Virus record (IMG/VR): IMGVR_UViG_3300047160_003987
DNA length: 64,000 nucleotides
Source: an uncultured virus (IMG/VR IMGVR_UViG_3300047160_003987)
Taxonomy: Duplodnaviria > Heunggongvirae > Uroviricota > Caudoviricetes
Reading direction: 5' to 3' (one strand)
Shown: positions 3,731-58,591 of the stretch, one piece after another
Position numbering within the stretch: position 1 is the first letter of the stretch
Layout: the number at the start of each line of letters is the position of its first letter
The notes under the pieces: generated by a model
Seen by the model: only the letters and a program-made list of their open reading frames with translations
Told to the model about the DNA's origin: nothing
Databases searched by the model: none
Translations under genes and position numbers: made by a program

Positions 3731-5224
3731 TCAGTCCTCCTTTGCTATCGGCCATCTCGCGTTTCTTCCCTTGCCCCGCACCCACGCGATATTGCGATGG
3801 GTGATCCAGTTTTTCGTATCCCTCGAGATCGCCGGCGCAGCCCGCACGTCCTTCATGGCGTTGGGCCATACCTCAAACCGCTCGCGATATACATTGGCAG
3901 CCCAGCCCGGCTTCCACCCCTTTAGCTGGGCATAGGCCAAAAGCTCGGCGTAGAACACGCGCCGATCAATACTCGCCCGCTCTTCCTTCTTCTTGCGCTC
4001 GATCTCTTTAAGCTCACCCGGTGTCGGCTCAATCGTGCAATGCGCCACAGTCACATGCTGACACATCGGGCATTTAGACATGCCGGGAGCTTTCAAAAAA
4101 CCACAGGCGGGGCATTCCTTCGGCAGCCTGATGCGATCAGTTACGCTCGCAACGCGGTCGGTGTCCGCCAATAATTCAGTATGGTTGACATCGATATCCG
4201 TCACAAAGCCGAGGTTCGAATGAGTGCTGGTATGATCGAGAACTAAAAGGAAGTCTTTGCCGGGAGCCGTCCGCAGGCCACGCCCCATGATCTGCACAAA
4301 CAACATCTCGCTCTTAGTCGGCCGCGCCAGGATGATACACCTGACATCCCAGTCTATGCCCATTGTCAACGTACCAATATTCACCACGACCTCGATCGAA
4401 CCATCATGAAAGCCGCGCTTGATCTCGGCGCGACCGTTTGGTGTCGTGAATGCATCCTGATAAGCGGTTCTGACGCCACGCGCCTCAAATTGCTCGTGCA
4501 GCTTCTTCGCATGCGTGCGATCGACAGCAAAGCATAACGTCGACCGACCGCGACCCTGCTCGATCCATGTCTCGATGATATCCGCGACCAGCTTAACCTT
4601 GCTCATACGTCGTGACAGTTCGCCCTTTTCATAGTCGCCCTGCACCGTCCTGACCCCATCAAGATCCGGATGACTCGATGCATAAACTTTGAAGTCGGAT
4701 AGCAAGCCCTTGTCTATCAATTCCTGCGTCGTCGATGCTTTGATCAGCCGCTTGAAATATGTCCCTAACACTTTGTGCCAGGGCGTAGCCGATAAACCGA
4801 TAACAGGCTTTTCCCACCATACCCCAGGTGTCTGCATCCACGTGCCATAGGCATCGGACCAACGATGCACCTCATCTATCACCACGACGTCGGCCGGCGG
4901 CATCTCACGTCGCTGCAACGTCTGCACCGAGGCCACCTGTACCGGCATGCAGCCATCCGTCTGCCGATGGTTCTGCTGGATCACCCCGATATCGCTGATG
5001 CCCTGCCCATTGAACATCTCGACCGTTTGATCGATCAAAGAGATCGCAGGAACGATGAAAAGGACTTTCTTGTCTTTCATGCGCGCCCTATTCACCAGTT
5101 CAGCCGACAATACCGTCTTGCCATAGCCTGTCGGCGCCTGCATCACGATATGCCTGTCCCCCTCACCAACCGCCGCCCGCAAATTATTCAACGCCTCGGT
5201 TTGATCCTCCCGCAATGACCTCAT
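3731..5224 (-). CDS. SF2 DEAD/DEAH-box helicase (RadD/YejH-like) with C-terminal Zn ribbon
   Basis: Walker A APTGYGKT, DEVH, GLSATP, QIMGRGLR, CPACG...CPMC; ATGA overlap supports start at 5224. Confidence 0.92.
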   Translation of the reverse strand: MRSLREDQTEALNNLRAAVGEGDRHIVMQAPTGYGKTVLSAELVNRARMKDKKVLFIVPAISLIDQTVEMFNGQGISDIGVIQQNHRQTDGCMPVQVASVQTLQRREMPPADVVVIDEVHRWSDAYGTWMQTPGVWWEKPVIGLSATPWHKVLGTYFKRLIKASTTQELIDKGLLSDFKVYASSHPDLDGVRTVQGDYEKGELSRRMSKVKLVADIIETWIEQGRGRSTLCFAVDRTHAKKLHEQFEARGVRTAYQDAFTTPNGRAEIKRGFHDGSIEVVVNIGTLTMGIDWDVRCIILARPTKSEMLFVQIMGRGLRTAPGKDFLLVLDHTSTHSNLGFVTDIDVNHTELLADTDRVASVTDRIRLPKECPACGFLKAPGMSKCPMCQHVTVAHCTIEPTPGELKEIERKKKEERASIDRRVFYAELLAYAQLKGWKPGWAANVYRERFEVWPNAMKDVRAAPAISRDTKNWITHRNIAWVRGKGRNARWPIAKED

Positions 5225-5475
5225 TGGCAGCCCCCCTGAGCGGTTTTCCACTGCTCGAAGCTGTCCGGTAGCCCGGCAGGCAAATGATCGATGGTGGTGC
5301 CCTCTGCGCCCTTCTCACGCAGGCATCTGGCCAGGACATCTCTGTCCGACCGGACAAACGACACATTGCGCCACCGTTTGGAACTTTCATGACGCTGCAG
5401 GATCCACTGAATACCGTCACTCGCCAGCGCCCAACCGTCCGCGACCGCAAATTGCTTATCCTCAGTCGACTTCAT
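5221..5475 (-). CDS. hypothetical protein
   Basis: ATGA-coupled on both sides. Confidence 0.65.
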   Translation of the reverse strand: MKSTEDKQFAVADGWALASDGIQWILQRHESSKRWRNVSFVRSDRDVLARCLREKGAEGTTIDHLPAGLPDSFEQWKTAQGGCQ

Positions 5476-5672
5476 GCCTTCACTCCCCATCGTTTGAACT
5501 TCACGATCAACGCAACATGCGTCTTGTCGCAACAAAACCGTTTCGCAATGACGCGGTGAGCAATACCGGCCGCCGCCATCATCCTGATCTCGATCACGTC
5601 AAGCCACGTCAGGCGGGCATGGGGGTTATTCTCGCCGGATCGATGTCCGTTTGCCGGCCAAACCTTGCTCAT
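5472..5672 (-). CDS. small DNA-binding protein resembling the C-terminal HTH of HNH homing endonucleases
   Basis: GENNPHARLTWLDVIEIR motif followed by HTH-like segment; no HNH catalytic part. Confidence 0.6.
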   Translation of the reverse strand: MSKVWPANGHRSGENNPHARLTWLDVIEIRMMAAAGIAHRVIAKRFCCDKTHVALIVKFKRWGVKA

Positions 5673-5986
5673 TGCGCACCCCCATTCCCAACACGGGGCA
5701 AAACCTCATCAGGCTGATCGATGTCGCCCCATGTGGTCTGAGCAACCCGGCCAACTTCCTCCGGTATCGCCCCAACTATCCAGCCCAGCCCAGCCTCCCT
5801 GATCCACGCCAACGCCGTATTGCTCCCGATCAGGCCATTCCTGAGCGCTACCCCAATAGTCGTCATGTCTGCATCCCACGTTTTTGCCCTGAGGCTGGCG
5901 GCCCGAAGCGCGGTCAGCAAAAATTCGCGGTGAATGTCTTCCTGTGCGTCGCTCATGGTTCTGTTTCCCGTCCGTCGTTTCGTCAT
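5669..5986 (-). CDS. hypothetical protein
   Basis: AGGAGCATCACAGC-ATG leader. Confidence 0.7.
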   Translation of the reverse strand: MTKRRTGNRTMSDAQEDIHREFLLTALRAASLRAKTWDADMTTIGVALRNGLIGSNTALAWIREAGLGWIVGAIPEEVGRVAQTTWGDIDQPDEVLPRVGNGGAQ

Positions 5987-6007
5987 GCTGTGATGCTCCT
6001 CCCTGTA

Positions 6008-6334
6008 TTATCGGCAGGGCTCGCCTGACATCTCCGCTAGCACGTCCATCACCACGTCGCGGCCCTTGATGATCGGCGGTTTTGACGGTGCTAGTGATGG
6101 ATTGCGGGAGATGTCGTATGGCGTCGGTTTGTACAGGTCCTTAACCTTTGGCGGCTTCTTGCGCTGCTGTTGCTGCAGCCATTGCCGTTCTGCTTTGCGC
6201 GCCTTCGCTTCGAGCGTATCCCGTGCTTCGTTGTAGACCATGCGTCCGGTACGCTTGATCACCGTGCCATGCTCCAACCTCTCCTCCCTTGCTTTGAATT
6301 TTCGCGCCCGTCCCCAGTTCATTTTTCCGGTCAC
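6008..6334 (-). CDS. basic hypothetical protein
   Basis: AGGAG RBS, GTG start, first gene downstream of the large non-coding region. Confidence 0.65.
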   Translation of the reverse strand: MTGKMNWGRARKFKAREERLEHGTVIKRTGRMVYNEARDTLEAKARKAERQWLQQQQRKKPPKVKDLYKPTPYDISRNPSLAPSKPPIIKGRDVVMDVLAEMSGEPCR

Positions 6335-6770
6335 CGTGTTGCTCCTGTTTCCTGAATTTTAGACATACTGCCCCATTTCTTTCCTGAGATAGCCTAGTAG
6401 GCTTGTCTCTCGTCCGGTCCCCGGACGGCGGGCGCGCTGCCCGGCGGAAAGGTCTTTCTCAGGTGGTTCGCCAGCCGTAAACGGGTCAAACCGGGCAAGC
6501 CCAATAGCCTGCATTCCCTCTGGCAAGGGTATTACGACCGAAACCGGCTTCTATGGGGCGGGACATCCGTGCGACACCCAACAGCTCGGTTTCAGACCGA
6601 CCACTGGGCAGGACAAACGATCCCGTCCAGAGGTTTTTTGGAAACCACCGGTGGAACCTGCTTGCAATTTGTGGGGGGTGTGTTAAGTAAGAGACACAAC
6701 GACCGCAATTCCAAACATTTCGGTAGTTTCAGAGAGGGCCAGCGCTGACAACGTCTGGCCCTTTCGCTTT
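6335..6770 (-). ncRNA. candidate long structured RNA / origin region
   Basis: No ORF of 60 aa or more; serial hairpins (CTGGACGGGA/TCCTGCCCAG, TCGGT/ACCGA, CCCT/AGGG, CGTCCGG/CCGGACG, AGCCT/AGGCT); TTGCAT at 6802-6797. Confidence 0.45.
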
Positions 6771-6771
6771 T
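6696..6771 (+). ncRNA. candidate ~75-nt antisense RNA
   Basis: TTGCAA (6662-6667) and TG-n-TAAGTA (6681-6689) upstream; ends in AGGGCCAG...CTGGCCCT hairpin plus TTCGCTTTT. Confidence 0.45.
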
Positions 6772-6857
6772 GTAGTAAGCCTCAATTCAAACCGTCATGC
6801 AAGTGTTAAAAATATCACACTGGAAGATGATACCGCATCGGCCGTGGGTATTGTAAT

Positions 6858-8159
6858 ATGGCGCATGAACAGCTTGTAAAAAACAAAGTTCTTCTATGTC
6901 CGGGCGATGCTTGGCATTTTTTGAAAGATACTCCAGACAACAGATATGATGCGGTCGTGACCGACCCGCCTTATGAATTGGGTTTCATGGGCAAAGACTG
7001 GGATCGTCGCGGCATTGCGTTTGATGCAATGTTCTGGGCTGAAGTGCTTCGTGTTCTCAAGCCTGGTGGCCACCTTACAGCATTTGGTGCCTCTCGCAAT
7101 TATCATAGGATGGCCTGTGCGATCGAGGATGCAGGCTTTGAGGTTCGCGATAGCCTGATGTGGATCTTTGGGACGGGGTTCCCGAAGTCACATGACATCA
7201 GCAAAGGGATCGATAAAGCGGCAGGGGCGGTACAGGAAGTTGTCGGTACTCGACCCAATGCCGTGCCATCTTATAGAAATAGCGCCAAAGGCGACGGCAC
7301 AAAAACCAATGACGGGCGCGACGCCGCCAACTGGGATGAATATAAGGCGCGCAGCACAAAGAATATTACTATCGCGTCAACCGCCGCCGCCCGCGAATGG
7401 CAAGGTTTCGGCACATCTCTAAAGCCAGCATTCGAGCCCATCGTTCTCGCGCGCAAGCCGCTGTCGGAAAAGACCGTTGCCGCCAACGTGCTGCGCTGGG
7501 GAACGGGGGCGATCAATGTTGATGGGTGTCGGGTTGGCATTCGAGAGAAGCCGAAAGTAACTAATCCTAAACGCACTTCGAACACCTATGGTGCAATTGA
7601 ATCGCCGGGCGGAAAACTACTACCGGATAGCCGCTGGCCGGCTAATATCTGCCACGACGGCAGCGACGAAGTGGTGGGGATGTTTCCGATGACCGGGCCG
7701 AGCAATGTGCGCCGCTCCGAAAACGAAGACATCGCTCAATCGACTTGGGCGTTAGGACGTACAGGCATCACGCCGAGGGGCGTATCGGATAACGGCGGCT
7801 CCGCCGCCCGCTTTTTCTACAGCGCAAAAGCTGATAGCAATGATCGCATCGCTTCCAAACATCCGACTGTAAAACCTATCGACTTGATGCGATGGTTGAT
7901 CCGTCTTGTAACGCCCCCCAATGGCTTAATATTGGACCCGTTTGCAGGAACTGGAACAACGGCCATTGCTGCGCTCTATGAAGGTATGCGATGCGTCTTG
8001 GTCGAGAATGAAAAAGAATACCAGGATGATATCAAACGCCGCATGAAATTATACGGAATGGGACCGGACCAATACGCCTATGAATTAGCGAAGTTGAAAC
8101 CAGTCGACCTTGGACCACTTTTTTCTTATTCCAATATTTCTGCACTCGATGGCAAATGA
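6858..8159 (+). CDS. N6-adenine/N4-cytosine DNA methyltransferase (beta class)
   Basis: VTDPPY motif IV N-terminal, HPTVKP, ILDPFAGTGTT motif I C-terminal. Confidence 0.92.
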   Translation: MAHEQLVKNKVLLCPGDAWHFLKDTPDNRYDAVVTDPPYELGFMGKDWDRRGIAFDAMFWAEVLRVLKPGGHLTAFGASRNYHRMACAIEDAGFEVRDSLMWIFGTGFPKSHDISKGIDKAAGAVQEVVGTRPNAVPSYRNSAKGDGTKTNDGRDAANWDEYKARSTKNITIASTAAAREWQGFGTSLKPAFEPIVLARKPLSEKTVAANVLRWGTGAINVDGCRVGIREKPKVTNPKRTSNTYGAIESPGGKLLPDSRWPANICHDGSDEVVGMFPMTGPSNVRRSENEDIAQSTWALGRTGITPRGVSDNGGSAARFFYSAKADSNDRIASKHPTVKPIDLMRWLIRLVTPPNGLILDPFAGTGTTAIAALYEGMRCVLVENEKEYQDDIKRRMKLYGMGPDQYAYELAKLKPVDLGPLFSYSNISALDGK

Positions 8160-15805: not shown

Positions 15806-16208
15806 AAAAGTACCTGATGAGATCGTGGCCTTTATCAAGGAGATCATCAACATTGACCGGCGCGAGCGACAGATGGCAGGCTTTATCCAGGGAACCACCC
15901 ATCTGGTAGACCGGATCGCTGCACACTTTGGCCTCAGCGTTGACTATGTGCAAGACATCAAGAAATTGAAAGAACGCCGGTATGTGCGTGCGTCCCTGTT
16001 ATTAGCAAACGACTGGTATACGGTTCCACTTGAAAAGCTTGAGCGAATACGTCAACGCCGCATACGTAAAGGTTTTATAGAGGGCCCCTGGAAGCCGGTC
16101 TATACGTACGGCCGTCCTGGTACGGGAAGCTTCAAACAACGACTGAGGCGCCGCGCTAAGCGATCTAAAGGGGCATTACGCAGGCTTCCCCCCAAACAAC
16201 AGCATTAG
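15759..16208 (+). CDS. basic hypothetical protein (start probably 15786)
   Basis: Last plus-strand ORF; HTH-like segment and Arg-rich tail. Confidence 0.55.
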   Translation: MSPQNSWKKMPGGAPKKVPDEIVAFIKEIINIDRRERQMAGFIQGTTHLVDRIAAHFGLSVDYVQDIKKLKERRYVRASLLLANDWYTVPLEKLERIRQRRIRKGFIEGPWKPVYTYGRPGTGSFKQRLRRRAKRSKGALRRLPPKQQH

Positions 16209-16501
16209 AACTCTTTCGGGCGACGGTAGATGCAAAACAGGCTCTGCCCCCGGGAACAAACATGGTCCTGGTCATCCTCCGACCAATGCAGCCTCGGGTC
16301 GGAATAAGACAACATCGGAAACCCGCGGACCCTGACACCATCCTTCAGTTCTTCGACCACCCCATTGGGAACCGGGCGGCAGTCAGCCCCGCCACAGCAT
16401 TGCGGTGAATACCAGCTGTGACCTTGCGCAGATGCGCATGCGCATAAAACCATCCCCATTAGAATACCGACCGCGACCTTAACCAGTTGGAATATCATCA
16501 C
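16205..16501 (-). CDS. small secreted Cys-rich protein
   Basis: Hydrophobic N-terminus then HSWYSPQCCGGADCRPV...HVC...FCIY. Confidence 0.7.
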   Translation of the reverse strand: MMIFQLVKVAVGILMGMVLCACASAQGHSWYSPQCCGGADCRPVPNGVVEELKDGVRVRGFPMLSYSDPRLHWSEDDQDHVCSRGQSLFCIYRRPKEF

Positions 16502-16604
16502 TATCCTTCCGAGGTTCCAAATAGGCCGTTAATTTGGCAAATTAGCCGCCAATTTCTTTTTGTTCCCCCGACGTTCCGCCTCTGTTCGAACCTCGGACAA
16601 AATG

Positions 16605-16649
16605 CCCCCCCCCTATTTCTGTCCGGGACAGAAACTAAACGGGGGGGCG
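16605..16649 (-). terminator. long hairpin after the endolysin gene
   Basis: C-tract/G-tract arms around TTTCTGTCC/GGACAGAAA; ATTTT follows on minus strand. Confidence 0.55.
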
Positions 16650-16650
16650 G

Positions 16651-17664
16651 TCATCCAATGAGCGCGGGTGCCGGGTAGATCACCTCGACGGTATCGTCGG
16701 TTCCGATCCCTAATGCCACCATCAAGCCCGGGCTTAAGTCTGCCACCCGTCCGGTGTCCTCATGTGGGCCCCAGTCTGCCGGCCATGCCAGAGCCTGCCG
16801 GCCGGTCTTGGGAGAGCGGACAAACGCCCGCAGCGTCGGATCCGCCAGCATGGTCTTGGGTGTAATTTCGTAGTCCCACCGGCAGGCGATATACGGCTTT
16901 GACGGATCGAGGCGCCTGGCAAGCCCAGACGTGCCCGGTGGCTGCTCGTCTAAAAACAGGTGGGGTGCGTCTTCGTATTCGTAAAAAAATGCAAGCCCTT
17001 CGTCCGGGTCCACACCCGTGTCAGCCGGTCCGCCGAACCAGCTGCACTTGCCGACTTCGGTTATGGCCACATTGATCTCTAAACGATCTCGTTCCTTCTC
17101 TCCCGCTTCCGCCACCGTAAGGTCCTTGCCGGCGAGCACTTCCGCGATCGCGAGGCACAGCTCATCGAAATGCTCGTGGTAGAGATCAACGTCAGCCTGC
17201 GAGTCCACAAAGCAAACCTCGATCAGCACTGCTGGGGCTGCCGTATTGTTAAGAAAAAACAGATCATCAGTATGCTTGCCACCGCGGTCTATGAAACCGG
17301 CCGTATAGGCCATCGTCGCCGATAGATCGATCGCGAGCGCATCAGCAGTCGTATAGAAGACCTCACAGCCTTTTGGCTCGTCGGTAGTCTGACCTTCCGG
17401 AAGATAGGCATTGAAATGAACGCTTGCGTCGATGTCATGCGGCCCTTGAGCATTATGAAAGTCAACGATGCGGTTCAGATTTTCCTGTTGATCGTTGCTG
17501 ACATCATCATGGTATGTCACCACGTCGACGCCCAAACGCCTGAGATATTTTGCGACTTCTTCAACAACACGCCGCGCTTCATCAACTTCATCGATGATGC
17601 CCTCGGCGCCGCGGATATGCAGTCCATGACCACTGCTCATCACAATCCGTAATTTGGCATCCAT
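16651..17664 (-). CDS. endolysin: N-acetylmuramoyl-L-alanine amidase (Amidase_3) plus C-terminal DPBB/RlpA-like domain
   Basis: SSGHG...E...SVHFNA...VLIEVCFVD; C-term CSWFGG...ADWGP...RVADLS. Confidence 0.85.
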   Translation of the reverse strand: MDAKLRIVMSSGHGLHIRGAEGIIDEVDEARRVVEEVAKYLRRLGVDVVTYHDDVSNDQQENLNRIVDFHNAQGPHDIDASVHFNAYLPEGQTTDEPKGCEVFYTTADALAIDLSATMAYTAGFIDRGGKHTDDLFFLNNTAAPAVLIEVCFVDSQADVDLYHEHFDELCLAIAEVLAGKDLTVAEAGEKERDRLEINVAITEVGKCSWFGGPADTGVDPDEGLAFFYEYEDAPHLFLDEQPPGTSGLARRLDPSKPYIACRWDYEITPKTMLADPTLRAFVRSPKTGRQALAWPADWGPHEDTGRVADLSPGLMVALGIGTDDTVEVIYPAPALIG

Positions 17665-52231: not shown

Positions 52232-55200
52232 TTATGTACACTGCACATAAAGCGCGGTAATAAAGATCGATGATGCCGCCGCCGACACCGTCGCCGTCCA
52301 ATTGTTCGCCGCCGTCGCCTGCACCATCGCACTGTCAACCGGCACCGTAAAACCTCGCATGTCGCCCGCAGGAACCATCACCGTCATGCGCGTTGTTCCC
52401 GCCGTCGAATCCTTGATCGCAACGTTGACCGCCGTGCCGCTCGTGTTCGAGATCGTCAGGCCATAAATATCGTTGAATACACCCGATGAGCCCGCCGTCA
52501 CGATCGTGGTTTCCGTCGTCGTTGTGATCGTCGTGGTCTGAAGCTTCTTGAGATCGCGCAGCGCCCCCACCACCACCTGCTTGCCAAGCTTGTCAAATAT
52601 TGCAGTGACACGCTGGCCATCACTGACCGCGGTCGGGTTTGCCGTCTTGGCAAGGCCGCCAATTTTCTGTGGGTTGCCGCTGTCCGTCGTGCCGGACGCT
52701 ATTTCGCCGACACACTGCTGGTTCACAGTCGACTTGATATTCACCAGCACGTTGCCGGCGCTGTCCAACTGCAACGGCGAGGAATTGCCGCTGGTGATCG
52801 TCGTCGGCGTGGTGTTGAACTCACCCCCGATCAAAATAGCCTGCCCAGGCGTCGCAATGTTCTGCGTCGAGGCAAAGTCAAAGACACCGCCGCCATTGCC
52901 GACACAGCGCGAGGTCCATGTGCCACCTTGCGAGGCCGTGCACAGGAAATTCGCAGCATTGTTCTGAAATGCCAGCGTCTCATGCGCCGCCGTCGTCAGA
53001 TCCGACTGCACCGCCACCGTGCCCGTGCCGGCAATGACCGTCGACAACCTGGCGCGGACGTTGGTCGCCCCCGTCGCAATGATCTGGAAGGCCTGGTTCG
53101 TGCTGGCCACAAACGTATAGGGGTTGGTCAGCTGCGATCCCGTTACCGGGTCGATCAGCCGGCTGACCGGAATGGTCTTGTAATTCGTGCCGCCATCATA
53201 CGACTCTTCGAACGTCACTGCGCCACCCGTCAGCGTCGTACCCTGTGTCAGCTGGCCTACAATGGTGTTGTAGGTGACAAATGTTGTCGCCAGCATGCTG
53301 ATGACGGAATTCAGCGTCGTCACCGACGTCCATGATCCAGTGCCTTGCGTCGGACTCGGCGTATAAACCCACAATGGTGACGCATTGCTGCCAAGCTCGA
53401 TCCCCGTCGCCGTCCGCAAATTGACAAAACCGGCGCGGTTGGCCGTCATCTGCCACGCACCGCCCTGCCCATTGGTCAAGGCATTGTTCGTGGCCGTGGT
53501 CTGGAAAAAACCGCCCGCAGGCGTGTAATTGGTCGTGCCCGCGGTAAATGCCGCCGCGTCCTGCGCCGCCGTGCCGCCACTGCCGGCCCCCGCCTTGATG
53601 TTGACCAGCAAATTGCCGGACCCATCCATCTGCAGCGGGCTCATGTTGCCGCTGGTGATGGCCGTCGGCGACGTGTTGAACTGCGCCAGCGCCATTACGC
53701 CATTGGCCACACTCGCGCTGTTCTGCGTGCTCGACCCAATGCCCCAGTTCGCCGCCGTCAGCGGATCAACCTGCCCCTTTAAATTTGCCGCCGTGGCCTG
53801 TTGCACCGTCACCGCGGCCGCAACGCTCACCGGCTGTGTCACTGCGCTGCCATCGACCTTCAGCGCCGTCGTATTCGCCCCCGTGCCGGTCAGATCAACC
53901 CGCAGCCCGCCCGTCGTGGTCAGGCTCAATGGGCTGGTCTGGGCCGTCGTATAAGATGGCGCAGACGTCGTGACTGCCCCCATGCCCAAATTGCCCGTCT
54001 GTCCCGATGTCGTCGACCCCTGGGTGGCATTGCTCGGTTGGTTGGCGCTGGTTGAAGCGCCGGTCGGCAGCGATACCGTGCCGCTGACATTGGTGATGTT
54101 CCAGGTCCCGCTCTGGCTGGCCGGAAACACCCCGCCCGTGCCCGTCACCAGCCACGCCGTGGTATTCGCCGTGTTGCCCGGTTGAACCGTCCAGGTCCCA
54201 CTCTGCGTCACCGCCACAGTGCCGCTGACAGGCTGAGTGACCGCCGAGCCGTCAACGCGAAGCGCACCGGCCGTGGTCAGCGAAAAAGGACTAGTCTGCG
54301 CGGTCGTATAGCTTGGCGAACCGGTAGTGACGGCGCCCATGCCCAACGTACCAGTTTGGCCCGACGTCGTTGATCCCTGCCCCGCATTGCTCGGTTGGTT
54401 TGCGCTGGTCGACGCCCCGGTTGGCAGACTGATCGTTCCAGAGATATTCGTGACGTTCCAGGTGCCGCCTTGGTTCGCCGTCACGGTCCCGCTGACCGGC
54501 TGCGTGGCTTGCCAGAACGTTCCGCTCACCGGCTGGGTGACAGCTGAACCATCGACGCGTAGGGCCCCGGCAGTCGTGAGCGATAGATAATTGCTGGTCG
54601 CCGTCGTGTACGAGGGCGCCGCAGTAGTCACAGCACCCAAAGCTAAACCGCCCGTTTGACCGGACGTGGTGCTCGCTGCAGCAGCGTTCGTAGGCTGGTT
54701 CGCTGAAGTAGCCGCTCCCGTAGGCAGGGGCAGGCTGGCAGCACTCACAGGCTGGGTCGCCTGCCAAAACGTTCCCGTGACCGCCACAGAGGCGTTCGTC
54801 AAATTGACGTTCGCGCTCGTCGACGTCATCGCCCACGTCGTTCCGTCCGGCTTCATACTCCATGGGGCACCCCCTTGGTTCGCCGTAACCGTGCCAGTCA
54901 CCGTCGCCGTGCCAGTAATGCTGACCGAACCCGATACCGGCTGTGTCGTCGCACTGCCATCAACGCGTAAACCACCCGCGGTCGTCAGGCTTAACGGGTT
55001 GGTCTGCGCCGTCGTGTAGGTCGGCGCACCCGTCGTGGTAAACCCCATAGCCACGTTGCCAATTTGGCCCGAGCTGGTCGAGCCAACTGCCGCCGCCGTG
55101 GGTTGGTTCGCCGATGTAGCCGCGCCAGTAGGCAGTGGCAGGGAGGCCGCCGACACCGGTTGCGTCGTCTGCCAGAACGTCCCCGTCACCGCGACAGACG

Positions 55201-58200
55201 CATTCGTCAGGTTGACATTGGCAGACGTCCCAGTCAGCGCCCAGGCCGTCCCGTCCGGCTTCATCGTCCATGGCGCACCTCCTTGGTTCGCAGTGATGGT
55301 CCCAGATACCGGCTGCGTCACCCCCGAGCCGTCAACCACAAGCCGGCCAACCGAACTCAACAGCAAGCCGTTCATTTGCCCCGTGGTCAGCGTCGGCGGG
55401 CTGGTCAAATATTGCCCGCCTATCGCCGTGCCCGTCGCTGGAAAGCTCGATCCGAACGAACTCGATGTCCCGCCGCCACCCGAGCCCGCGATCACATTGA
55501 CCCGAACCGCACCACTGGTATCCAGGCTGATCGGACTGGTCTGGCCCGTCGTATAGCTCGGGTTGCTGGTCGTCACCGCACCCATCGACAGCGCGCCAGT
55601 CTGGCCACTCGTTGTCGACCCCTGCGCCGCATTGCTGGGTTGGTTGGCCGATGTCGCGGCGCCGGTCGGAAGGCTGATGGTGCCTGAGATATTATTGATA
55701 TTCCAAGTGCCGCCCTGCGAGGCCGTGCACAGCAGGTTGGCAGCATTGTTCTGGTAAGCTACCAACTCATTTAAATTCGGCGTCGATAAATAATAGATCG
55801 TGACCGTGCCAGTCCCAGCGATCACAGTCGACAACCGAACACGAACCTGGGCGCTGCCCGTACTAACGATCTGCCAGGCCAAATTGGTGTTCGCTACCAG
55901 CGTATACGGGTTGGCAATTTGCGCCCCCGTCGACGGATCGATCAGCCGCCCAGCCGGCACCGCCTTCCATACCGTGCCATTGTCAAACGTCTCTTCAAAC
56001 GTCACCGCGCCGCCAGTGATCGTGGTCCCTTGCGTCAGTTGCCCCTGCAGCGTGTTATATGCAGCACTGCTGCTGGGAATAACTGCGACCGTCGTGTTCA
56101 GCGCCGTCGCCGAGGTCCATGCCACCGAACTCTGCGTCGACGGCAAACTCGGAATGACAAAAAGCGGTGAGCCGCTAACACCCAATTGGTTGCTGTTGGC
56201 ATCCCGCAAATTCACCTGCAAAGCCCGATAGGCCGTCAGCTGCATCGTGCCCTGCTGGCCAGCTGTCAGCGGGTTGCTGTTCGCGCTCGCCTGATAAAAA
56301 CCGCCAGACGGTGTAAAATTGCTGCTGCCCGCCGTGAACGTGCTTTCATCCGCCGCCGCCGTCCCACCACTGCCCGCACCAGCCTTGATATTCACCAACA
56401 AATTGCCAGCACTATCCAGCTGCAGCGGGCTGGCATTCCCCGACGTGATGGTCGTTGGCGTCGTATTAAACTCGCCACCCACCAGGAACGCATTGGCCGG
56501 CGCCGACACATTCTGCCCGGCAAAGTCCAGGATCGCACCCGCATTGCCAACCGTGCGACTGGTCCAGTTGCCACCCTGGTTCGCCGTGATGGTGCCGCTG
56601 ATCGGTTGCGTCACCGCCGAGCCATCCACCTTCAACGCACTCGAGGCCGTGACCGCCGCCGTGTTGCCGCCCTGGCTGATCGAGGTCAACCATGGCGTGC
56701 TGTTGGCGGTATTGCCGGGCTGAACCGTCCACGTGCCGCCCTGCGAGGCTGTGACCGTGCCGCTGACAGGCTGGATCGTGGCCGAGGCATCCGTGCGTAA
56801 CGCACCCGCCGTGGTGAGCGAGAACGCATTGCTCGTCGCTGTCGTATAGGACGGCGCCGCAGTCGTTACAGCACCAAGAGCCAGATGTCCGGTCTGCCCC
56901 GTCGTCGTACTGCCCAATGTCGCATTGCTGGGCTGGTTCGCTGATGTTGCAGCCCCAGTCGGTAACGAAACGGTCCCCGAGATATTCGTAATGTTCCAGG
57001 TGCCCGACTGCGTCGCCGCCACTGTACCCGAGATCGAGACCGAGCCCGAAATAGGCTGCGTCACCCCGCTGCCATCCACACGCAGCGCCCCCGCCGTCGT
57101 CAGCGATAACGCATTCGACGTCGCCGTGGTGTAGCTCGGCGCACCCGTCGTGACCGCCCCCAGCGATACCGTCCCAGTCTGCCCCGATGTCGTCGACCCC
57201 AGGCTCGCATTCGATGGCTGGTTCGCACTGGTCGACGCCCCCGTCGGCAGCGAGATCGTGCCCGTCACATTGGTGATGTTCCAAGCCCCGCTCTGCGTCG
57301 CCGCAATGGTCCCGCTCACAGGCTGCGTCGCCTGCCAGAAGGTCCCGCTCACGGGTTGCGTCACAGCGCTGCCATCGACTTTAAGCGACCCGGACACATT
57401 GGTCTGCAGCGCCACCATCTGGCCATTGGTCAGCGACGGCGGTGTCGAAAGGTATTCAGCGCCCGCCGCGGTGCCCGTCGTCGGAAACGTCGCGCTGAAG
57501 TTGGAACTTGTCCCGCCGCTGCCCGCCCCACCCGTAATATTCACGTTCAGCGAACCCGACGTGCTCGAGATCGCATTCCCCGACCCATCCTGCGTCCGCG
57601 TCAACCATGTCCCGCCCTGGTTCGCAGTCACAGTTCCGGATACGGGCTGCGTTACACCGGACCCATCCACCCGGATCGCACCCGCCGTTGTCAATGAGAT
57701 CGGGTTGGTGTTCCCATTCGTATACGTCGGCGCCGAAGTCCCCACAGCGCCCTGCACCAACGTTCCCGTCTGCCCGGCTGTGGCCGAACCCTGCGCCGCC
57801 GCCGTCGCCTGGTTCGCGCTCGTGGCCGCCCCAGATGGCAACGGAAGGGCACCAGCAGAGATCGGCTGTGTCACTGCCGACCCATCCACCTTCAGCGCGC
57901 CCGCCGCGCTCACGGTGGCGCTGTTGCCCCCCGCATTGACCGTCATCAGCCATGGCGTCGTGTTCGCCGTGTTCCCAGGCTGCACCGTCCAGGTTCCCGA
58001 CTGGCTCACAGGAACCGTGCCCGTGATCCCGATCGAACCCCCCGAGATGGCGACCGTCCCGGATACAGTCTGCGTCACCCCGGACCCATCAACCCGCAAT
58101 GCACCCGCCGGCGTGAGACTCAGCGGGTTGGTCTGGCTGGTCGTGTAACTCGGCGCCGCCGTCGACGTCGCCCCCATCGCCAGATGCCCGGTCTGACCGG

Positions 58201-58591
58201 ATGTCGTCGACGCAATAGCCGCATTCGTCGGCTGGTTCGCCGCCGTCGCCGCACCCGTCGGAAGGCTGATGGTCCCCGTGATGTTGGTGATGTTCCACGT
58301 GCCGCTCTGCGTGGCCGCCAGCGTCCCCGATACCGACCACGGCCCGCCGCTCTGCGTCACGGCGCCAATAACGTTCGCCCCCGCCTGCAGCACAATGCCG
58401 CCAACAATGTCCCGCGAAATCGAACGCAACTTGGCAGAGACCGACCCCGCAGCGCCAGCTGTCACCGCGAGGTCCGTTGACGCGCCATAGGTGATATTCG
58501 CACCGTCAAGCAGCGTCTGCCCCAACGTCGTGATGGTGCCGGTCCCCGAGGTGGGAACGCCGTTGACGATGCCTACAATGGGATCGGCCAT
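52232..58591 (-). CDS. giant (2119 aa) T/S/G/A-rich repeat protein, probable fibre
   Basis: Many repeats of W..TN.SGT.SLPTGA.TSANQP...SGQTG...APSYTT....SLTT.GALRVDGS.VTQP.SG; two copies of a globular GQLTQGTT.TGGAVTFEE domain. Confidence 0.85.
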   Translation of the reverse strand: MADPIVGIVNGVPTSGTGTITTLGQTLLDGANITYGASTDLAVTAGAAGSVSAKLRSISRDIVGGIVLQAGANVIGAVTQSGGPWSVSGTLAATQSGTWNITNITGTISLPTGAATAANQPTNAAIASTTSGQTGHLAMGATSTAAPSYTTSQTNPLSLTPAGALRVDGSGVTQTVSGTVAISGGSIGITGTVPVSQSGTWTVQPGNTANTTPWLMTVNAGGNSATVSAAGALKVDGSAVTQPISAGALPLPSGAATSANQATAAAQGSATAGQTGTLVQGAVGTSAPTYTNGNTNPISLTTAGAIRVDGSGVTQPVSGTVTANQGGTWLTRTQDGSGNAISSTSGSLNVNITGGAGSGGTSSNFSATFPTTGTAAGAEYLSTPPSLTNGQMVALQTNVSGSLKVDGSAVTQPVSGTFWQATQPVSGTIAATQSGAWNITNVTGTISLPTGASTSANQPSNASLGSTTSGQTGTVSLGAVTTGAPSYTTATSNALSLTTAGALRVDGSGVTQPISGSVSISGTVAATQSGTWNITNISGTVSLPTGAATSANQPSNATLGSTTTGQTGHLALGAVTTAAPSYTTATSNAFSLTTAGALRTDASATIQPVSGTVTASQGGTWTVQPGNTANSTPWLTSISQGGNTAAVTASSALKVDGSAVTQPISGTITANQGGNWTSRTVGNAGAILDFAGQNVSAPANAFLVGGEFNTTPTTITSGNASPLQLDSAGNLLVNIKAGAGSGGTAAADESTFTAGSSNFTPSGGFYQASANSNPLTAGQQGTMQLTAYRALQVNLRDANSNQLGVSGSPLFVIPSLPSTQSSVAWTSATALNTTVAVIPSSSAAYNTLQGQLTQGTTITGGAVTFEETFDNGTVWKAVPAGRLIDPSTGAQIANPYTLVANTNLAWQIVSTGSAQVRVRLSTVIAGTGTVTIYYLSTPNLNELVAYQNNAANLLCTASQGGTWNINNISGTISLPTGAATSANQPSNAAQGSTTSGQTGALSMGAVTTSNPSYTTGQTSPISLDTSGAVRVNVIAGSGGGGTSSSFGSSFPATGTAIGGQYLTSPPTLTTGQMNGLLLSSVGRLVVDGSGVTQPVSGTITANQGGAPWTMKPDGTAWALTGTSANVNLTNASVAVTGTFWQTTQPVSAASLPLPTGAATSANQPTAAAVGSTSSGQIGNVAMGFTTTGAPTYTTAQTNPLSLTTAGGLRVDGSATTQPVSGSVSITGTATVTGTVTANQGGAPWSMKPDGTTWAMTSTSANVNLTNASVAVTGTFWQATQPVSAASLPLPTGAATSANQPTNAAAASTTSGQTGGLALGAVTTAAPSYTTATSNYLSLTTAGALRVDGSAVTQPVSGTFWQATQPVSGTVTANQGGTWNVTNISGTISLPTGASTSANQPSNAGQGSTTSGQTGTLGMGAVTTGSPSYTTAQTSPFSLTTAGALRVDGSAVTQPVSGTVAVTQSGTWTVQPGNTANTTAWLVTGTGGVFPASQSGTWNITNVSGTVSLPTGASTSANQPSNATQGSTTSGQTGNLGMGAVTTSAPSYTTAQTSPLSLTTTGGLRVDLTGTGANTTALKVDGSAVTQPVSVAAAVTVQQATAANLKGQVDPLTAANWGIGSSTQNSASVANGVMALAQFNTSPTAITSGNMSPLQMDGSGNLLVNIKAGAGSGGTAAQDAAAFTAGTTNYTPAGGFFQTTATNNALTNGQGGAWQMTANRAGFVNLRTATGIELGSNASPLWVYTPSPTQGTGSWTSVTTLNSVISMLATTFVTYNTIVGQLTQGTTLTGGAVTFEESYDGGTNYKTIPVSRLIDPVTGSQLTNPYTFVASTNQAFQIIATGATNVRARLSTVIAGTGTVAVQSDLTTAAHETLAFQNNAANFLCTASQGGTWTSRCVGNGGGVFDFASTQNIATPGQAILIGGEFNTTPTTITSGNSSPLQLDSAGNVLVNIKSTVNQQCVGEIASGTTDSGNPQKIGGLAKTANPTAVSDGQRVTAIFDKLGKQVVVGALRDLKKLQTTTITTTTETTIVTAGSSGVFNDIYGLTISNTSGTAVNVAIKDSTAGTTRMTVMVPAGDMRGFTVPVDSAMVQATAANNWTATVSAAASSIFITALYVQCT

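Follow-up and report, generated by a model that had tools for sequence, protein, structure and literature searches.

In this study, we found that the gene-free gap at positions 6335–6857 of a 64,000-nt stretch of DNA from an uncultured tailed virus (the whole stretch is hereafter called the window) encodes a real, conserved structured RNA that belongs to no known Rfam family. The RNA is part of a previously unnamed antisense-controlled module, likewise real and conserved, that occupies the place of the initiator gene in a lineage of phages. The best explanation, to which we give about an even chance, is that the gap is a replication-initiation module in which an antisense-controlled origin RNA replaces the initiator protein. 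We hold it slightly less probable that a whole tailed-phage lineage, in which neither integrase nor ParA was recognised, uses interchangeable RNA initiators, swapped with ordinary wHTH initiator genes, to start replication; if so, one antisense-controlled slot would be shared by two or more covarying pseudoknotted folds that are unrelated to each other and by several further unclassified cassettes, and a folded RNA would play the part of an O-like initiator towards the helicase and primase that the phage itself encodes.

The window carries a tailed-phage gene set (P22-like portal, capsid, terminase, ERF, YqaJ, RuvC-like resolvase, methyltransferases and SF2 helicase), as judged by Pfam and PHROGs searches of 78 ORFs selected from the 277 present. 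The same sequence or protein also occurs on contigs of 64,026 and 64,621 bp, so the window probably covers almost the entire phage, with little expected beyond it. The closest named helicases come mostly from Alphaproteobacteria, and the phage host is probably alphaproteobacterial. The preliminary description had noted that no initiator, primase or polymerase is recognisable, and none was recognised by Pfam and PHROGs in the 78 ORFs, by tblastn and profile searches for primases or by tblastn for initiators. The lack of a primase is true of the window and is not part of the system, because most relatives with the region encode a Toprim primase. Next to the gap, the divergent methyltransferase gene opposes the direction of the surrounding operon, has no evident Shine–Dalgarno (SD) sequence ahead of its ATG and is possibly leaderless; a methyltransferase in this orientation is missing from the related loci L008, L010 and L011. 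Elsewhere in the window, a 2119-aa ORF in the virion gene region (52232–58591, minus strand) has no PHROG match and only sub-threshold Pfam matches, and the region 16208–16651, where the early and late operons converge, has folding z-scores of about −2.4 (plus) and −1.8 (minus) and probably holds terminators.

The gap contains no ORF of 60 aa or more and has stops in all six frames. The two opposing promoter-like sites and the terminator-like end of a short plus-strand RNA that had been proposed beforehand were found again (Table 1); a strict consensus scan of the window detected neither promoter nor terminator. Folding z-scores of the gap are −2.6 (minus) and −2.4 (plus), which is suggestive only; the antisense RNA scores −5.1 on the plus versus −2.6 on the minus strand by a cruder shuffle, and the core by itself only about −1.7. 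As the z-score of the core is modest, the real support for the RNA comes from conservation and covariation. The Rfam/Infernal search proposed at the outset came back empty, with 0 matches at gathering in the 64 kb (Rfam 15), and scans of positions 6000–7000 and of 12 related loci gave chance matches only. Resemblances to RNase P, the cobalamin riboswitch, twister and HDV motifs were considered and dropped for want of an Rfam match. Searching the gap by blastn revealed nothing among 50,697 GenBank phages and only chance matches of 24–36 nt among plasmids, and a metagenome scan, dominated by an unrelated chance match that recurred many times, added, among the matches listed, only copies of already known loci. 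We found no description of these RNAs in the literature searched, although the more than 10,000 candidate viral RNAs from IMG/VR reported in PMC10690425 may include them unnamed.

Table 1 Features of the RNA module and its surroundings in the window, and loci of related phages that hold the type A RNA
Feature	Location	Strand	Remarks
SF2 (ResIII/DEAD) helicase	3731–5251	−	Pfam, PHROGs; operon downstream of the RNA
Small helical protein	5669–5986	−	Mutually exclusive with phage Toprim primase
Small basic protein	6008–6334	−	Next after the type B RNA in every member but L226 (10 of 11)
11-codon upstream ORF	6331–6366	−	Just past the pseudoknot; stop overlaps GTG start at 6334
Type B structured RNA core, ~235 nt	6372–6602	−	11 members by covariance model
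P1, long helix with inner domain	6599–6587 with 6546–6535	−	Arm-swap significant
P2 hairpin	6529–6516	−	
P3 hairpin	6512–6495	−	Arm-swap significant
P4 hairpin	6494–6475	−	Arm-swap significant
P5 domain, variable	6451–6379	−	Arm-swap not significant
Pseudoknot	P4 loop 6486–6479 with 6378–6372	−	Arm-swap significant
Switch stem of sense RNA	6641–6732	−	Strand X (6732–6705) pairs with strand D (6665–6641), directly before the core
Antisense RNA promoter, predicted	6662–6689	+	−35 TTGCAA 6662–6667, 16-nt spacing, −10 TAAGTA 6684–6689
Antisense RNA (ctRNA/RNA I-like), predicted, ~77 nt	~6696–6771	+	Terminator hairpin 6732–6765, T-run (U-run of the RNA) 6768–6771
Sense (long RNA) promoter, predicted	6774–6802	−	−35 TTGCAT 6802–6797, 17-nt spacing, weak −10 CTTACT 6779–6774; start ~6768
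N6/N4 DNA methyltransferase, divergent neighbour	6858–8159	+	Pfam, PHROGs; outside the RNA module
Type A RNA, related phages	L008 5258–5440; L010 4782–4990; L025, L011, L027, L033, L035, L038, L047, L051, L054		

The core of the RNA, here called type B, was aligned from ten sequences, and a covariance model made from nine of them was run on 50 sources, where it also found L041 and, weakly, L055. In the nine-row MAFFT alignment, 20 tested pairs are 89.9% paired, and nine of the 20 show compensatory changes, a count reached by none of 500 shuffles and set against 1–5 in slid controls; the pairs were chosen by us, with P3 and P4 omitted since the alignment misregisters both, the structure was derived from the same sequences, and L044 is closely related to L050. 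The alignment-free arm-swap analysis of the ten sequences gave −13.5 versus −8.7 for P1 (p = 5e-5) and was significant for P3 (p = 5e-5), P4 (p = 2.5e-4) and the pseudoknot (p = 0.003); P5, for which the arm of L226 was mis-picked, did not reach significance (p = 0.07). A run of hairpins had been read beforehand on the minus strand, one of them with a G-U pair favouring that strand; in the window, P1 and P3 favour the minus strand, G-U pairs making P1 the more stable on the strand that is transcribed (−13.5 vs −8.9 kcal/mol). The compact multi-helix fold holds invariant unpaired nucleotides. At its 3′ end, the window RNA has no long G-rich or AT-rich tract, the best stretch being 19 purines in 25 bases inside the next ORF. 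The inner domain is doubled in L041 (4351–4530) and L055 (3290–3500), which suggests that it is a modular protein- or RNA-binding element. The model found no match in 151 genomes of a Bradyrhizobium family sample, which was one without a positive control.

The type B core lies behind an antisense module whose order of parts (promoter, antisense RNA, folded core) is kept across 29 distinct phage leaders, retrieved with the helicase, with the small ORF and with patterns in the DNA and chosen by eye and by profile. The long sense RNA begins with ~75 nt to which the predicted antisense RNA is complementary, and its predicted start coincides with the end of the antisense RNA. A TTG stands at the sense −35 position in 21 of the 29 leaders, and an antisense promoter-like match lies at the corresponding distance in 20, compared with none of 29 control windows, by a pattern set after the sequences had been seen. 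Of the two strands, the antisense one gives the more stable hairpin in 26/29 leaders; a TTT tail follows the hairpin in 22/29, and the letters of its stem vary between phages. Strand X, which lies inside the antisense-covered part of the sense RNA, pairs better with its own strand D than with those of other leaders (29 leaders; cognate −14.0 vs non-cognate −10.2 kcal/mol, permutation p = 5e-5). In the predicted fold of the window RNA, P1–P4 are recovered when the RNA is free, and P3 is lost once 76 nt are blocked. Among 72 GTDB helicase loci, the module was found only in L267, which falls in the same helicase cluster as L047, and a viral pattern scan returned 113 stretches, nine of which scored as the module (seven known and two new type A).

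In 11 other leaders, the slot holds an RNA of type A, unrelated to type B (Table 1), and two later members, L408 and L420, were assigned to it by eye. In type A, a covarying H-type pseudoknot (P1, p = 2.5e-4; P2, p = 5e-5) precedes a long pyrimidine/purine hairpin, whose 3′ strand is rich in G, and a purine tract; L010 has a G5-A-G7 run. The members scanned gave no Rfam match. Long hairpins and purine tracts form the 3′ ends of types A and C, remote from any start codon, with 20–25 purines in 25 bases (23–25 in several); comparable tracts sit behind the initiator genes of L039 and L256. Further unclassified cassettes occupy the slot in L014, L026, L043, L046 and the pair L040/L049. In L046 (2300–2800), the purine tract of the cassette is apparently reversed, being pyrimidine-rich on the sense strand, which hints at a DNA-level element.

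The slot is also exchanged with a protein gene. L017 and L008 are 88–94% identical on both flanks of the slot, yet L008 has a folded RNA there and L017 a 108-aa HTH_36/O-like (wHTH) initiator ORF with short repeats; the break runs from within the antisense gene to the AT-rich tail. Comparable swaps were seen between L011 and L014 and between L026 and L027. When the first 80 nt of the L017 transcript are blocked, strand D is predicted to pair over the SD and start codon of the initiator gene, a modelled fold by which a protein gene, too, could come under this switch. In a distant phage, L224 (3751–4587), a type B RNA and a small basic ORF are followed by an O-like initiator of which just the C-terminal half is present, as though its DNA-binding half had given way to the RNA.

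To compare module and initiator more widely, we used 123 helicase clusters, excluded 26 with short upstream DNA and added eight loci to the remaining 97, giving 105. By profile and tblastn, 24 of these have only the module, 59 only an initiator, one (L017) both and 21 neither, calls that are partly circular, the module profile having been trained on positive loci that it scores. The profile missed the RNA-bearing L054, L055 and L224. With these three added, 26 of 28 module loci lack an initiator, one has a whole initiator (L017) and L224 the C-terminal half. An initiator is present in 58 of the 77 module-free loci; since the other 19 also lack a recognised one, the absence of an initiator is by itself weak evidence. 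The association of RNA with lack of initiator gives a Fisher p of 2e-10, which overstates the exclusion because the loci are related and phylogenetically clustered. On a quick helicase tree (56 rows), the starred branches force at least four changes between RNA and initiator; L017 and L256, both with an initiator, are placed within groups of phages that carry the RNA, and types A and B are intermixed. Seven helicase–primase loci (L065, L066, L073, L083, L086, L088 and L093) have neither the module nor a recognised initiator, and in several of the seven a DnaA C-terminal-like HTH protein precedes the helicase (e.g., L086).

Searches of whole records point the same way. Searches with three initiator families detected the positive controls but gave no match in the record nearest to the window or in 14 of the 15 records that bear the RNA, seven of these 15 being at least 90% complete; the exception is the C-terminal half in L224. 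A whole-record search with HTH_36 matched 0 of 17 records, among which there was no positive control, and was not used. Neither integrase nor ParA was found in the 15 RNA-bearing records, the only match being in the initiator-bearing L039; a plasmid state that needs copy control is therefore not evident. Of the Rep-independent, RNA-controlled replication or attenuation proposed in the preliminary description, Rep-independence is supported by the RNA-for-initiator swap in sister phages. Attenuation by an intrinsic terminator is not: none is conserved on the sense strand in the 29 leaders, eight of which have weak, scattered hairpin-plus-U matches at unrelated positions.

Small ORFs follow the RNA. 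The type B pseudoknot ends 4–7 nt ahead of a start-codon-like triplet; such a triplet comes after the pseudoknot in 10 of 11 members, as judged by eye, and the peptide that would begin there is not conserved. The small basic protein, which forms 68 clusters at 50% identity, has no family match in Pfam or PHROGs and no fold match, Atlas included; it may possibly be an RNA-binding partner. It is missing from L226, where the primase directly follows the type B RNA, and for this reason we consider it unlikely to be an essential hidden initiator. The RNA likewise runs straight to the primase in the type A loci L010, L025, L027 and L033, and in none of these five loci is there a candidate initiator ORF between the two. 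The small helical protein, for which a helical model gave no fold match, Atlas included, occurs alone in 17 of the 105 loci and the Toprim primase alone in 79, with both in none and neither in nine; the helical protein may be an adaptor that recruits the host primase. An RNase H gene lies between the noncoding cassette and the primase in L049 (4406–4849) and L040 (4454–4897), the only two loci where one was seen beside the RNA; the two are closely related, and their cassette ends in a long pyrimidine/purine inverted tract.

The promoter-like sites are conserved, the structure covaries and the slot is exchanged with an initiator gene. What may follow from transcription of the module is modelled on known systems. 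Host RNA polymerase would transcribe the long RNA leftward from about 6768. While free, its 5′ part would form the X–D stem and let the type B core adopt the conserved pseudoknotted shape that the covariation supports. The folded core could then keep the nascent 3′ RNA on its template as a persistent R-loop near 6370–6330, which by analogy would open the duplex for the phage SF2 helicase and for primase or its substitute, and the RNA of the R-loop may supply the primer after cleavage by RNase H. The ~77-nt antisense RNA would pair with the first ~75 nt, release strand D, misfold the core and damp initiation; copy-number control and incompatibility among related phages would be the expected outcome.

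We favour this origin-RNA reading because RNA and initiator are swapped in the near-identical L008 and L017, because module and initiator rarely co-occur and the tree needs at least four changes, because L040 and L049 carry an RNase H gene immediately after the RNA, and because of the purine tracts of types A and C, the lack of a conserved attenuation terminator and the RNAs that run straight to primase. The coincidence of sense start and antisense end, the RNA I/RNA II geometry described in PMC5043065, adds to this. Speaking against an origin RNA, the window core is without the purine tract that an R-loop would favour, and the position of its pseudoknot just before a start-like triplet fits translational control. 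On these two grounds, we give an appreciable but clearly lower probability to a second explanation, in which the RNA is a cis-regulatory leader whose antisense-controlled fold gates translation of, or read-through into, the replication operon in the manner of the IncI/IncB repZ pseudoknot or the repABC ctRNA, perhaps with the basic protein bound to it, the origin being opened by the phage primase or helicase or by an unrecognised protein. Such a leader would account for the pseudoknot strand abutting a start-like triplet in 10 of 11 type B members, for the overlap of the upstream ORF with the next start in the window, for the basic ORF after 10 of 11 type B RNAs and for the repABC-type switch behaviour predicted for L017. 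However, a multi-helix structure of ~235 nt, with several unrelated folds in the same place, far exceeds the ~35-nt leader with which L017 would achieve equal control; types A and C end away from start codons, no terminator is conserved in the 29 leaders, and the presence of the RNA just where the initiator gene is lost is left unexplained.

The compact fold with its invariant unpaired nucleotides, and the duplicated inner domain of L041 and L055, would also suit a trans-acting or catalytic RNA, for example self-processing or in an RNP with the basic protein, that would act in replication or in host takeover and form no R-loop at its own locus. We consider this improbable, as there is no Rfam ribozyme match and no 3′ terminator that would release a discrete RNA, and the RNA is always in the initiator slot. 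Signals of the ssi/pas kind, which load replication proteins onto ssDNA, are the model for a further explanation, slightly less probable still, in which transcription exposes the fold as ssDNA to load primase, helicase or a primosome. The element adjoins primase and helicase genes, and three plasmid replication motifs of comparable length described in PMC5737381, for which we obtained no Rfam match here, could act as ssDNA at this size. Nevertheless, G-U pairs, as in P1, strengthen pairing on the strand that is transcribed, the same type is found with and without primase, and the element is predicted to be controlled by an antisense RNA. The modest z-score of the core would be expected of a decayed initiator gene or of chance structure in a divergent intergenic gap, which we regard as very improbable: compensatory changes across 11 diverged phages largely refute it, and tblastn revealed no trace of an initiator in the window.

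To our knowledge, structured RNA initiators are well understood for ColE1 only. The layout that the preliminary description had likened to ColE1 and repABC, a long RNA with an antisense RNA at its 5′ end, was supported together with its conservation, covariation and link to replication; kinship in sequence was not. As described in PMC5043065, ColE1 RNA II/RNA I shares with the layout predicted for the window a long noncoding transcript, a short 5′-end antisense RNA, the lack of an initiator protein and control by a switch of fold; in two relatives, RNase H is also encoded beside the RNA. The layout is seen at the sequence level in 20–26 of the 29 leaders, depending on the feature, and no initiator was recognised in the window or in 14/15 RNA-bearing records. 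The window RNA is ~400 nt, against 550 nt for ColE1, and has a phage helicase operon downstream, and, unlike ColE1, the phage slot takes several unrelated core folds or a protein initiator. Homology to ColE1 was rejected: matches to its origin, by blastn and with two nhmmer profiles, were all at chance level, and there was no match to RNAI in Rfam. The type B model, used as a test of ColE1-type membership, did not match L317. By analogy, the window system may work like ColE1 RNA II/RNA I without being a member of that family.

In mycobacteriophages of cluster A with parABS (Alma, LadyBird, RedRock and others), initiation is supplied by RepA or by an ncRNA, and the ncRNA origins, which lie beside parABS, maintain a plasmid prophage (PMC7157519). 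These are the nearest phage precedent, compared here by description only; the main text of PMC7157519 has no passage on antisense RNA or secondary structure. Unlike them, the window RNA heads a helicase/primase operon, no ParA was found in the window and neither ParA nor integrase in the 15 RNA-bearing records, and the host is probably alphaproteobacterial. The repABC ctRNA, as described in PMC3155836, is a short countertranscript, started and ended by a promoter and a terminator of its own, that lies before the initiator and disrupts a large stem-loop; L017, with module and initiator ORF, has this design. In contrast, the window has no repA, repB or repC among its 78 ORFs, and no Rfam ctRNA match, no induced terminator was found, and the predicted target of its antisense RNA is a structured RNA instead of an initiator gene. 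Phage T4 oriF and oriG are likewise phage origins opened and primed by a transcript (PMC3016281). They need only a promoter and a sequence-independent unwinding element, and the word 'antisense' does not occur in that review, whose passages on these origins describe no conserved RNA fold (PMC3016281).

Among plasmid leaders, IncI/IncB repZ, in which an antisense RNA binds the loop of a pseudoknot, and the pT181/pIP501 attenuators, in which it induces a terminator, have a Rep gene downstream; they share with the layout predicted for the window antisense-controlled folding beside a start codon and a leader peptide. Unlike in these systems, the window antisense RNA is predicted to bind ~200 nt upstream of the pseudoknot and not its loop, and neither terminator nor Rep gene was found after the window RNA.

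In summary, sister phages that are nearly identical but have, behind one and the same antisense switch, either an RNA or a protein initiator represent a natural swap experiment, and the analysis adds two RNA folds, both new, whose models are backed by covariation. If the main rival explanation held instead, the module would still be new, as a family of large phage leader RNAs under antisense control. If the origin-RNA reading is true, it would account for phages whose genomes encode helicase and primase yet lack an initiator, would show how protein and RNA initiators substitute for one another and would offer new small replicons.
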